Part shown: in pieces, positions 39,301 to 42,300 of the stretch
How positions within the stretch are numbered: the first letter of the stretch is position 1
Layout of the letters: each line of letters opens with the position of its first letter
From: Escherichia coli
Lineage (GTDB): Bacteria > Pseudomonadota > Gammaproteobacteria > Enterobacterales > Enterobacteriaceae
Assembly (NCBI RefSeq): GCF_024700885.2
Contig: NZ_CP117016.1
Direction: 5' to 3' (one strand)
DNA length: 64,000 nucleotides
Position numbers: made by a program

Positions 39301-42300
39301 GGTGTACTGGAACAGACGGCCCGGGCTTACATTGAAATCACATGGTGCCATTGAACGTCATCTTGGGTGTAGTGACTTTTAACGTCAGGTGATGCATAAG
39401 GGTCTTTCGCGGAGAGGCCCTGTTTACACAATTAAATAAGTCGAGTCCTCTAGGCTGGGCTGTGTGCACGCCCCCCCGTTCAGCCCGACCGCTGCGCCTT
39501 ATCCGGTAACTATCGTCTTGAGTCCAACCCGGTAAGACACGACTTAACGCCACTGGCAGCAGCCATTGGTAACTGGATAGTGGATTTAGATACGCAGAAC
39601 TCTTGAAGTTGAAGCCTTATAGCGGCTACACTGGAAGGACAGCATTTGGTATCTGTGCTCCATCAAGCCAGTTACCACAGTCGATTAGAAGAGGTCGAAG
39701 ACTTCTAATCGGACGGAAAAAGCCGCCGCAAGGCGGCTTTTTCCGTTTACAAGCCGAAGATTACGCGCAGCTTAAAAGGATCTCAAGAAGATCATTTTAA
39801 TTTTGCTGATCGTTGCGCCCTACCAGTGACCATACGGATAGGGCTTTTCCTTGATAAAATCGCGGATAAATGGATCGTAACCGTTAGCCTTGATGTAACT
39901 GAAATCAATCTTGTTGGGAACATTTTTGCATATCAGCATATCATCTCCCGTCAGGGTGAACTGTCGGGCAGGATTCTGGAGTACAACAGGATTACGATTG
40001 TCTTTTAACCATACCCTGACTTTACCACCGGGGGGCAGGCCAATAATCATTTTGTTTCGGTAATATATTTTTCCCGGACGATAAGTATCAGGATAGGCAG
40101 TCAGCATCTGCTGCCACGTATCCCGGCTGAACCAGATCTCCGTCTCATACGCCTTTTTATCGATAACTGAGTCCCAGCATACCGTCATCCTGACAGGCAG
40201 CGCCTTGCCAATATTAAAACTGGCTAAAAAACCGCCTACGTGCTGGCTCCATTTTCCCACACTGCTCTGACTGGGTTCAGTCGGATCCAGTCGCCGGAAA
40301 AAGCTCTCCCGGATATCCCCGTCCTCCAGATACACCATTGTCACCAGTGCCGGCAGATTTTTCGGGTAAAAAAATTGAATTCCCAGTGGTCGTAAGGCAA
40401 CTTCTGCCCCCATTGCTCCACGCCATCGCCCAGCAGCGTCCTCACACCAGCCCTACGGTCATGGCAGCCGACAGCCAGCATTACGCCCACTATCACGCCC
40501 ACCATCAGCGGTAATCGTCTCATTCCTGCCTCCTCAGAACAGTCCATCCAGCGCGCCTTGCGACGCCCCCGCCCGGTCCGCCATTGAGGTGTAGCCGAGC
40601 ACCGGCACAAAAAAGGCGCGAGCGCGCCATTGTGTCGTCACTAAGGAGTGTTCAGGAGGTCAAGCCCGGCGCCTGATTTTGCAGACGCGAGGAAAAGAGA
40701 CCGCGAAGCCCGGTGAACGACAAGGGGATGTAATGCGAGCCATCTTCCAGATTAGCAACCCGGTTCATATATCAGTAAAATACGGTCGCGCTCCCCTCCC
40801 CCTCTTTGCACAAAGGTATGAAAATGTATTCAGATCACCAACGTAGTTATCTGGCCCACTGGTTGACGTTAAGCGGCAAAGCCGAGGACTCGCTGACGCA
40901 AACTATTGCCAGCGCACGGGTTGATATGAATCCTCATCAGGTAGAGGCTGCGATGTTTGCGCTGGCATCTCCCCTGTCGAATGGCGTGATCCTGGCCGAT
41001 GAAGTGGGACTGGGGAAAACTATTGAGGCCAGCCTGATTTTGGCGCAAAAATGGGCTGAACGCCGCCGAAAACTGTTGCTGATTGCACCCGCAACGCTAC
41101 GCAAGCAGTGGAGCCAGGAGCTGGAAGAGAAATTTTCGCTGCCTTCACAAATTATTGAAGCGAAGATCTTCAATCAAATGGTTAAAGAGGGGAGCGATAA
41201 TCCCTTTGATATTGAAAATGCAACCGGGAAAGCGGCGATCTGCATTTGTTCATACGAATTCGCTGCCCGTAAAGAGCACGAGCTGGCACGAATCCCGTGG
41301 GATCTGGTCGTCATGGATGAGGCGCATAAACTGCGTAATATCTACAAGAACGATGGCGCTAAAACAGCCAAAAAACTCAGTGGCGCACTGTCCGGCAGAA
41401 AAAAAATACTGCTTTCCGCCACGCCGCTACAAAACAGTATTCTTGAGCTTTACGGCCTGATTTCCGTGATTGATCCTCATTTTTTCGGCGACCTTGCTTC
41501 GTTCAAGGCCCGTTATTCCCGACAGAATATTGACGATGCAGAACTGGCATTATTAAGGGTTCGTCTGAATAAAATCTGTAATCGAACGCTTCGTCGACAG
41601 GTTCAGCAGGAAGGCGGGATCAGTTTTACCCGACGCCATTCAATAACCGAAGACTTTCGTCCGACGGAAGACGAAGAAGTGCTCTATAAACAGGTTTCCT
41701 CTTATTTGCAGCGGGACGATCTACTGGCGATCAAAAGCGGCGCGCGTCACCTAGTAACGTTAGTCATTCGTAAAATTCTGGCCTCATCGTCTACAGCGAT
41801 CCAGGGAACGCTGGAAACGATGATCCACCGTCTTGAAAGTAAAATGCCGGTGCTGGATGCGCTGACGGATTATGAAAATTACGACGATTACAGCGATGAA
41901 GAAGGCATTGATGACGAAGATACCATCGATCCTCAGGCGCTACAGGCCGAAATTGACCAGTTAAAAAATTATAAGACTTTAGCGGCATCGATTACCAAAA
42001 ACGCCAAGGCCGAAGCACTGTTACGCGTTCTCGATCGGGCCTTTACCTTTACGGCTGAACTGGGCGGATTACGTAAGGCGGTCATTTTTACCGAGTCCGT
42101 ACGCACCCAGACCTGGCTGGCGCAACTGTTGTCAGAAAGTGGCTACGAGGGAGAAGTGGTTCTGCTCAATGGCAGCAATAGCGATGCGGTGTCGAAGAAG
42201 ATTTACAGCGACTGGCTGGAGAAACATCAGAACTCTGGCCGGGTTTCCGGTTCGAGCACGGCGGATATGAAGGCAGCGCTGGTTGAAAAATTCAGGGACG

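Follow-up and report, generated by a model that had tools for sequence, protein, structure and literature searches.

The window, a stretch of 64,000 nucleotides, is part of an Escherichia coli chromosome and covers a pheV island that is common to the strains 55989, O104:H4, 042 and E24377A. Within this island lies a block of plasmid homology at 39448-40554, which we call the scar. The features of the scar and of its left flank are listed here.

38966-39444, plus strand: flank outside the scar, the 3' end of an island gene of the yagK/yfjJ ('inovirus Gp2-type') kind, cut on its left side by IS1
39445-39447, no strand: left junction, placed by comparison with a backbone homologue and plasmids
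39448-39797, no strand: ColE1-type replicon fragment comprising the start of RNAII (~303 nt) and the RNAI gene, each with its promoter (BLASTN)
39448-39750, minus strand: truncated 5' region of RNAII (preprimer), +1 at ~39750, cut at ~+303 (alignment to ColE1, pS19_141-f, pEA5_2 and pSTEC17_183-a)
39603-39632, plus strand: putative RNAI promoter, -35 TTGAAG, 18-nt spacer, -10 TACACT (by homology, hexamers as in ColE1)
39639-39746, plus strand: RNAI gene for a 108 nt antisense RNA (Rfam: RF00106; fold; start set by alignment to ColE1 RNAI)
39715-39744, plus strand: RNAI stem-loop 3 and terminator hairpin, GGAAAAAGCCGCC-GCAA-GGCGGCTTTTTCC; the opposite strand is RNAII stem-loop I
39758-39786, minus strand: putative RNAII promoter, -35 TTGAGA, 17-nt spacer, -10 TAATCT (by homology, hexamers and spacing as in ColE1)
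39820-40523, minus strand: DUF2931 (Tli1-type T6SS immunity lipoprotein) pseudogene in the same plasmid-derived block (tblastn; Pfam: PF11153)
40534-40554, minus strand: remnant of a DUF2235/Tle1-like effector gene, its last 6 codons (ALDGLF) and stop (homology to plasmids)

The replicon fragment matches plasmid ColE1 (NC_001371) in BLASTN with 287 of 371 positions identical (77%, E = 1e-72), and it is 88-98.4% identical to the closest natural ColE1-family plasmids. A preliminary description had placed a ColE1-type RNAI/RNAII control region at 39455-39793; the BLASTN match and the Rfam match given below show that the region is real and lies at nearly the same place. The close alignment with pBR322 that was claimed with it holds in part. 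With ColE1 as the reference, the RNAII segment from +175 to +303 (~94% identity) and the promoters agree well, but stem-loops II and III of RNAI are strongly diverged (~45% identity), which is expected because the incompatibility type differs.

All 102 positions of the Rfam RNAI model (RF00106) align to 39641-39746 on the plus strand, and the score of 59.9 bits exceeds the gathering threshold of 47 (E = 1.9e-8). The RNA from 39639 to 39746 is predicted to form three stem-loops after a 5' tail, with an MFE of -52.7 kcal/mol (z = -8.6), and none of 200 shuffled sequences folded as well. Stem-loop 1 has the loop CCAUCAA and stem-loop 2 a 10-nt loop, while stem-loop 3 consists of a 15-bp stem with a GCAA loop and doubles as the terminator. 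The terminator hairpin quoted in the preliminary description, GGAAAAAGCCGCCGCAAGGCGGCTTTTTCC, was located here, at 39715-39744, and a hairpin of terminator type with a T-run lies at 39725-39737 and following.

Aligned to ColE1, the RNAI gene and its own promoter are placed antisense within the RNAII 5' end in the same way. For both RNAs, the module has the promoter hexamers and spacing of the ColE1/pMB1 module, and it also shares with it a 108-nt RNAI with a 5' tail and three stem-loops that lies antisense to the initial ~108 nt of RNAII. It differs in that the window copy is chromosomal and single-copy, that its RNAII is cut at ~+303 of ~555, that the RNase H site, origin and rop are missing, and that the divergent stem-loops 2 and 3 carry the 10-nt loop and the GCAA tetraloop, respectively.

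The RNAI and RNAII promoters of ColE1 are known experimentally. Our promoter calls rest on position-for-position identity with them, and a generic sigma-70 scan with a threshold of 9 out of 12 consensus positions left both ColE1-type promoters unflagged, as they score 8/12. Judging from the sequence, RNAI is probably still transcribed from the scar. A literature search found no mention of this element or of its expression, and no transcript data for the locus. In O104:H4, 55989, 042 and E24377A the only annotation at the RNAI locus is a spurious 48-aa 'replication initiation protein'; neither this ORF nor an 87-aa ORF belongs to a family in NCBIfam or Pfam.

The RNAII remnant keeps stem-loops I-III, which are complementary to RNAI, and the G-run (C7 on the plus strand, 39471-39477). 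Its homology ends at ~+303, where the window diverges and intact relatives run on leftwards for ~250 nt plus the origin. A functional ColE1-type replicon comprises an RNAII preprimer of ~555 nt up to the RNase H cleavage site and the origin, and the rop/rom gene is common, though not universal, among such replicons. Complete ColE1-like plasmids compared by BLASTN with all 64 kb matched 39448-40554 only; the origin, the origin-proximal ~250 nt of RNAII and rop are absent from the window, in agreement with the earlier observation that the origin itself is missing. The scar cannot initiate replication, as it has lost both the RNase H processing site and the origin.

The plasmid homology continues past the replicon segment through the adjoining DUF2931 gene to 40554, where every plasmid match stops exactly, and the right junction of the scar is thus at 40554/40555. 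The scar is larger than first described and contains, besides RNAI/RNAII, a frameshifted DUF2931 gene and the final 6 codons of an effector gene of Tle1 type. The DUF2931 domain (Pfam: PF11153) was detected in a 197-aa ORF of the window with E = 4.5e-29, and DUF2931 is a Tli1 immunity family (PMC10395195; bioRxiv 10.1101/2024.03.05.583533). The frameshift lies in an A7 run at 40368-40374, where intact alleles have A8, and splits the protein into two frames (residues 1-55 and 51-235 in tblastn) with the break after codon ~52. The signal peptide and the lipobox are cut off from the domain, and the window holds no intact ORF for this protein. Of the adjacent cognate Tle1 (DUF2235) gene, the window has the last 6 codons and the stop; the source plasmids and DETEC-P1056 carry the gene.

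One reading is that the block persists through its cargo, with DUF2931 as an orphan Tli1-type immunity protein against Tle1-armed competitors and the ColE1 fragment hitch-hiking. The assignment to the Tli1 family is consistent with it, as are the intact DUF2931 genes of the CFSAN004176-type alleles and DETEC-P1056 and the divergence of the DUF2931 alleles (87% vs 98%), which is typical of immunity genes. However, the window and 40 or more copies identical to it have the frameshifted DUF2931, with signal peptide and lipobox off the domain, and in CE0026a there is a stop at the lipobox cysteine. Furthermore, the operon promoter is gone with tle1, and a terminator-like hairpin at 40615-40628 lies just upstream. 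Persistence through the cargo is therefore quite unlikely.

At the left junction, the island backbone runs to 39444 (...AATAAGTCGA), followed by ~3 nt of filler and by plasmid homology from 39448 (CTCYARGCTGGGC). The yagK/yfjJ flank is 95.9% identical to the terminal part of a 567-bp gene in CP101363.1, and the gene is found without the scar in about 1,100 E. coli genomes. To the right of the scar, the window encodes a DrmD-like helicase, IetAS and a type III R-M system, a defence island.

The preliminary description had proposed a small plasmid co-integrated by IS1, that is, a plasmid fused to the chromosome by IS1, with resolution or deletion leaving this piece. In such a cointegrate, IS1 copies would lie directly at the plasmid/host junctions, with target duplications. 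A ColE1-type scar without its origin was indeed found, and one IS1 copy is located to its left; the role of IS1 was not borne out. IS1 ends at 38965, 480 bp away from the scar, with island backbone (the yagK/yfjJ 3' end) in between, and there are no IS ends at either scar junction (39444-39448 and 40554/40555). Relative to 55989, window 1876-38972 is a 37-kb resistance region (Tn21/catA1) with IS1 copies at its bounds, which was inserted later, and in 55989 itself, where scar and flanks are identical, there is no IS1 nearby. The less-decayed allele of DETEC-P1056 has the same left junction, also IS-free. With no IS1 at either junction and the scar present without IS1 in 55989, cointegration by IS1 was rejected and is scarcely credible.

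As judged by homology, the scar derives from small ColE1-like plasmids bearing Tle1/Tli1, which form a rare group. These relatives carry rop, DUF2931 and DUF2235 and are 89-96% identical over 1,107 bp. The nearest are pS19_141-f (NZ_CP075646), pEA5_2 (NZ_CP117577) and a copy inside the IncF plasmid pSTEC17_183-a (NZ_CP075653), the ori part of which is 98.4% identical to the window; the DUF2931 gene of the window is 98.3% identical to the pEA5_2 allele. They are collinear with the scar, from the ori 5' part through DUF2931 to the DUF2235 end, and differ from it in possessing a complete origin, rop and a (mostly) intact Tle1 gene.

Further copies of the scar show how the block has eroded. The chromosome of DETEC-P1056 (NZ_CP116169) has the same left junction to the yagK/yfjJ gene, and it keeps Rop and intact DUF2931 (Tli1) and Tle1-like genes. 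Its RNAI is identical to that of the window at 107 of 108 positions; in contrast, its DUF2931 is a different allele (87%), and the DrmD/IetAS/type III R-M module that follows the window scar is absent. In CFSAN004176 and three other genomes, 31 bp of RNAI/RNAII (39720-39750) are deleted between AAGCCG repeats and Tli1 is kept. The window type has kept RNAI and has a frameshifted Tli1, and Ec73552 and TW10573 have wholly lost the ColE1 part. These states form a decay series on common junctions, in which sister alleles erode by different routes.

We found 53 chromosomal copies of the scar, and the whole RNAI and both promoters are intact in 49 of them, which is compatible with a retained function and does not require one. 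The identity of 47 of the copies was considered as a sign of constraint and rejected, since the flanking island is equally identical (99.7-100%); it points instead to recent horizontal spread.

Such a copy of RNAI could be a functional incompatibility determinant, with the chromosomal RNAI binding cognate plasmid RNAII in trans and thereby lowering copy number or blocking establishment. RNAI is full-length and well folded, its promoter matches that of ColE1, and in stem-loops 2 and 3 it does not differ from the Tle1/Tli1 plasmids. Cloned RNAI genes are known to exert incompatibility in trans. Engineered systems show that ColE1 RNAI and an RNAII 5' sequence can pair in trans between plasmid and chromosome, so that cross-talk of the scar with a cognate plasmid is possible in mechanistic terms. 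These engineered silencing systems with a chromosomal RNAII leader and plasmid RNAI use exact cognate sequences and direct RNAI from a high-copy plasmid at a chromosomal target, whereas here a single-copy locus is on the chromosomal side, and an identical plasmid partner is not known. The specificity is narrow: in PLSDB there is no plasmid with an identical RNAI; the best match is 98.2% identical, and only about 13 plasmids reach at least 93%. The RNAI of the Tle1/Tli1 plasmids differs from that of the window by 2-7 nt, and the loop of stem-loop 1 is always among the differences. Single loop changes are known to alter specificity, a point against such a determinant.

The scar and a cognate plasmid occur together in none of the 5,426 complete E. 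coli genomes, as exclusion would predict. Cognate plasmids are rare, however (6 of the 5,426), and with 53 scar carriers only about 0.06 co-occurrences are expected, so that the zero is uninformative and was rejected as evidence of exclusion. Moreover, a single gene copy faces many plasmid copies, the scar would also make an RNAII 5' decoy, and by copy counting its RNAI would amount to roughly one extra plasmid. Four lineages have deleted the RNAI terminator, and others the whole ColE1 part. Taken together, a functional incompatibility determinant is unlikely. Interference with resident ColE1 plasmids should be negligible because there is one copy of the gene, no identical RNAI in PLSDB and few cognate plasmids. 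It is still more improbable, and highly so, that the RNAI/RNAII module is a domesticated anti-plasmid device at the edge of the defence island, in which constitutive RNAI would stock the cell beforehand with inhibitor and so hinder the establishment of incoming ColE1 plasmids that are Tle1-armed and under the same type of control. If this were true, it would be a chromosomally encoded plasmid incompatibility serving as immunity.

We consider it likely that a small ColE1-family plasmid with a Tle1/Tli1 (T6SS phospholipase effector/immunity) pair left 39448-40554 in the chromosome, as a decaying remnant and not a working system. This is based on the homology, extent, junctions and structure of the scar, on the loss of the origin, and on its distribution and decay states. 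The plasmid would have joined a pheV-type genomic island by illegitimate recombination, with the break inside its own origin region at ~RNAII +303 and just downstream of a yagK/yfjJ-type gene. We infer this mechanism, because the original right-hand integration junction is preserved in none of the genomes examined and no empty site was found: the flanks, taken as 400 bp to the left of 39444 joined to 400 bp to the right of 40555, are adjacent in none of the 5,426 E. coli genomes. Later deletions would have taken rop, the effector gene and the half next to the origin, leaving the copy-control module, the frameshifted immunity gene and 6 effector codons. As both promoters match the hexamers and spacing of ColE1, two transcripts are probably still made, the 108-nt RNAI and an RNAII-like RNA running leftwards into the yagK remnant and IS1. 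The two RNAs would mostly pair with each other and presumably have no selected function.

As an ordinary plasmid remnant, the scar is mostly of housekeeping significance. Pathogens that have been studied heavily (O104:H4 outbreak strains, 55989, 042 and E24377A) have a full Rfam-grade RNAI gene in their chromosomes, and replicon-typing or plasmid-detection tools keyed on ColRNAI could miscall a plasmid in strains that bear the scar. A real effect on the copy number of cognate plasmids would matter to plasmid ecology, although a sizeable effect is unlikely on the present evidence. The decay series, from Tle1 + Tli1 + Rop to Tli1 only, RNAI only and finally nothing, is a clean example of the erosion of an integrated plasmid in an island. 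Furthermore, the scar draws attention to small ColE1-type plasmids with a T6SS effector-immunity pair, a group not yet described.

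The preliminary description placed a ColE1-type RNAI/RNAII control region without its origin at 39455-39793, and this is borne out in both respects. ColE1 itself (NC_001371) aligns with 39448-39797 over 287/371 positions (77% identity, E = 1e-72, BLASTN), and the Rfam RNAI model RF00106 matches over its whole length at 39641-39746 on the + strand, scoring 59.9 bits where the gathering score is 47. In PLSDB, 4,504 plasmids match the ColE1 segment. The closest is the IncF plasmid pSTEC17_183-a (98.4%), and many small plasmids reach 88-92%. The elements of the region are:

39639-39746, + strand: RNAI, extent by alignment with ColE1
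39603-39632, + strand: RNAI promoter, TTGAAG-18 nt-TACACT
39786-39758, - strand: RNAII promoter, TTGAGA-17 nt-TAATCT

In the alignment, the hexamers and spacing of both promoters equal those of ColE1. The RNAI-like terminator hairpin quoted previously lies at 39715-39744. The predicted RNAI structure consists of a 5' tail and three stem-loops (-52.7 kcal/mol, z = -8.6), and none of 200 shuffled sequences folded as well. With every testable defining feature present, the RNA gene is a genuine RNAI family member. Its similarity to ColE1 is uneven, being about 94% at RNAII +175 to +303, high in both promoters and about 45% in RNAI stem-loops 2 and 3, which is the pattern expected of a different incompatibility specificity. 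In the RNAII region, as in ColE1 itself, the RefSeq/PGAP annotation has a 48-aa 'replication initiation protein' at 39460-39606 (+). This ORF has no Pfam or NCBIfam family match; in all likelihood a non-coding RNA gene has been miscalled here as protein-coding.

Homology places the RNAII start at about 39750, and the similarity to plasmids stops at 39448. Of the RNAII preprimer's ~555 nt, some 303 are therefore left; in ColE1, RNAII and RNAI are 555 and 108 nt long. At precisely the point where the window diverges, intact relatives run on to the left into the origin and rop, and complete ColE1-like plasmids gave no BLASTN match in the 64 kb outside 39448-40554. The scar thus lacks the defining feature of the replicon, an RNAII reaching an origin, and with that origin lost it is unable to replicate.

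Small-plasmid homology continues to 40554, giving a scar of 1,107 bp, larger than the segment first described. It is 95.8% identical to the E. albertii plasmid pEA5_2 (5.4 kb) and 89% to the E. coli plasmid pS19_141-f (6.7 kb), both with the gene order rop, complete origin, DUF2931 gene and DUF2235 gene. The latter is named 'T6SS phospholipase effector Tle1-like' in RefSeq. The right part of the scar contains:

39820-40523, - strand: DUF2931 gene (Pfam match), frameshifted at 40368-40374, where an A7 run replaces the A8 of intact alleles
40534-40554, - strand: remnant of the effector (DUF2235) gene, its last 6 codons and stop

DUF2931 is the Tli1 immunity family (PMC10395195; bioRxiv 10.1101/2024.03.05.583533). 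Judged by sequence affinity the block is a mosaic, its ori part being nearest to pSTEC17_183-a (98-100%) and its DUF2931 allele to pEA5_2 (98.3% versus 87% for others). ColE1-type plasmids of 5-7 kb with a Tle1-like/Tli1-like T6SS effector-immunity pair form a small group (NZ_CP075646, 1-6683; NZ_CP117577), and copies embedded in IncF plasmids also hold the pair (NZ_CP075653, 13000-24000). An ANR-family regulator is additionally present in pS19_141-f and in the IncF copy of pSTEC17_183-a.

The window is E. coli chromosome, with 100% identity to strain MLI114 over the 3.5-kb stretch searched (38000-41500), and represents a pheV-tRNA island that 55989, the O104:H4 outbreak strains, 042 and E24377A also have. 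Some 40 complete genomes carry the 1.1-kb scar at 100% identity. On the left of the scar is the 3' end of a yagK/yfjJ ('inovirus Gp2-type') island gene, and the backbone stops at 39444. On the right, 55 bp from the junction, the island backbone upstream of an SNF2 gene has an Rfam match to the Hfq-binding sRNA isrK (40609-40688, - strand, 56.8 bits against a GA of 50) with a terminator at 40615-40628. Beyond it PADLOC identified a defence island (40806-51587) with a DrmD-like SNF2 helicase (E = 3e-201), IetA, IetS and type III R-M Mod and Res. Rfam also gives a match to an IS3-family frameshift element, the ALIL pseudoknot, at 54540-54656 (+, 118 bits).

Co-integration by IS1 had been proposed for the small plasmid. 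The plasmid scar stands, but we reject IS1 as its agent. The nearest IS1 end (38965) is 480 bp from the scar, and no IS end adjoins either junction. In 55989 the integrase, yagK remnant, scar and defence genes are contiguous without IS1, and window 1-1875 and 38973-47554 match adjacent 55989 sequence at 99.8-99.97%; ~1866-38965 is therefore a later insertion. This 37-kb resistance region, absent from 55989, lies between two directly oriented IS1 copies and resembles r-determinant/Tn2670. It contains the Tn21 mer operon, IS1326, a catA1 remnant and a class 1 integron with dfrA5-qacEdelta1-sul1, whose AAC_AAD leader/attI site matches Rfam at 31896-31968 (-, 66.9 bits). No clean 9-bp target duplication was seen around the region.

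Related chromosomal alleles form a decay series:

DETEC-P1056: same left junction (…AATAAGTCGA-GTC-CTCCAGGCTGGGCTGTG…), then intact DUF2931, intact Tle1-like gene and Rop
CFSAN004176, A24, CE0007a, CE0026a: both window junctions and the A8 run; 31 bp gone (39720-39750, between AAGCCG repeats)
Ec73552, TW10573: entire ColE1 part gone
UMNK88: right part gone

The 31-bp deletion takes away RNAI stem-loop 3/terminator and the RNAII start. DUF2931 is annotated as an intact 705-bp ORF in CFSAN004176 and has a stop at the lipobox cysteine in CE0026a. Because different lineages inactivate different parts, the series bears the signature of neutral erosion and not of selection on RNAI. Most simply, the plasmid would have been broken inside its own origin region on integration; we only infer this, since the plasmid's other end has been lost and a search of 5,426 genomes gave no empty site. 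CE0026a (NZ_CP119003, 1501-1700, versus window 39530-39640) has both junctions and the same 31-bp deletion, but its RNAII stem-loop IV/RNAI promoter segment is that of a different ColE1 allele, which suggests that a resident ColE1 plasmid and the chromosomal scar have exchanged sequence by gene conversion.

Since both promoters are intact in sequence, RNAI and an RNAII-like RNA reading out leftwards are likely transcribed from the scar; the stretch from 39448 to 39000 showed no terminator on the - strand. Being perfectly complementary, the two RNAs would mainly titrate each other. The suggested interference with ColE1 plasmids is possible in principle, but several points count against an effect of any weight. 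An identical RNAI occurs in no PLSDB plasmid; the nearest are at 98.2% and then 96.4%, and only about 13 plasmids reach at least 93%. The stem-loop 1 loop is CCAUCAA in the scar versus CCACCAA or CCACUAAA in all of those plasmids, and single loop changes reportedly shift RNAI specificity. A survey of 5,426 complete E. coli genomes counted the scar RNAI type 53 times in chromosomes and 6 times in plasmids. Two scar-type RNAIs occur together in none of them, which is uninformative because the expected co-occurrence is only ~0.06. One chromosomal copy, RNAII decoy included, should count as about one extra plasmid in copy control. Interference of consequence is thus unlikely, and it is highly improbable that RNAI has been domesticated against plasmids at the defence island's edge.

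The scar is apparently an undescribed plasmid fossil in a genomic island; our literature search found no paper mentioning it, and none linking Tle1/Tli1 to ColE1 plasmids. A colicin-plasmid-like replicon with a T6SS effector may merit separate study. The practical relevance of the scar is confined to the RefSeq mis-annotation and to ColRNAI-based plasmid typing, which may give false positives in strains that carry it.
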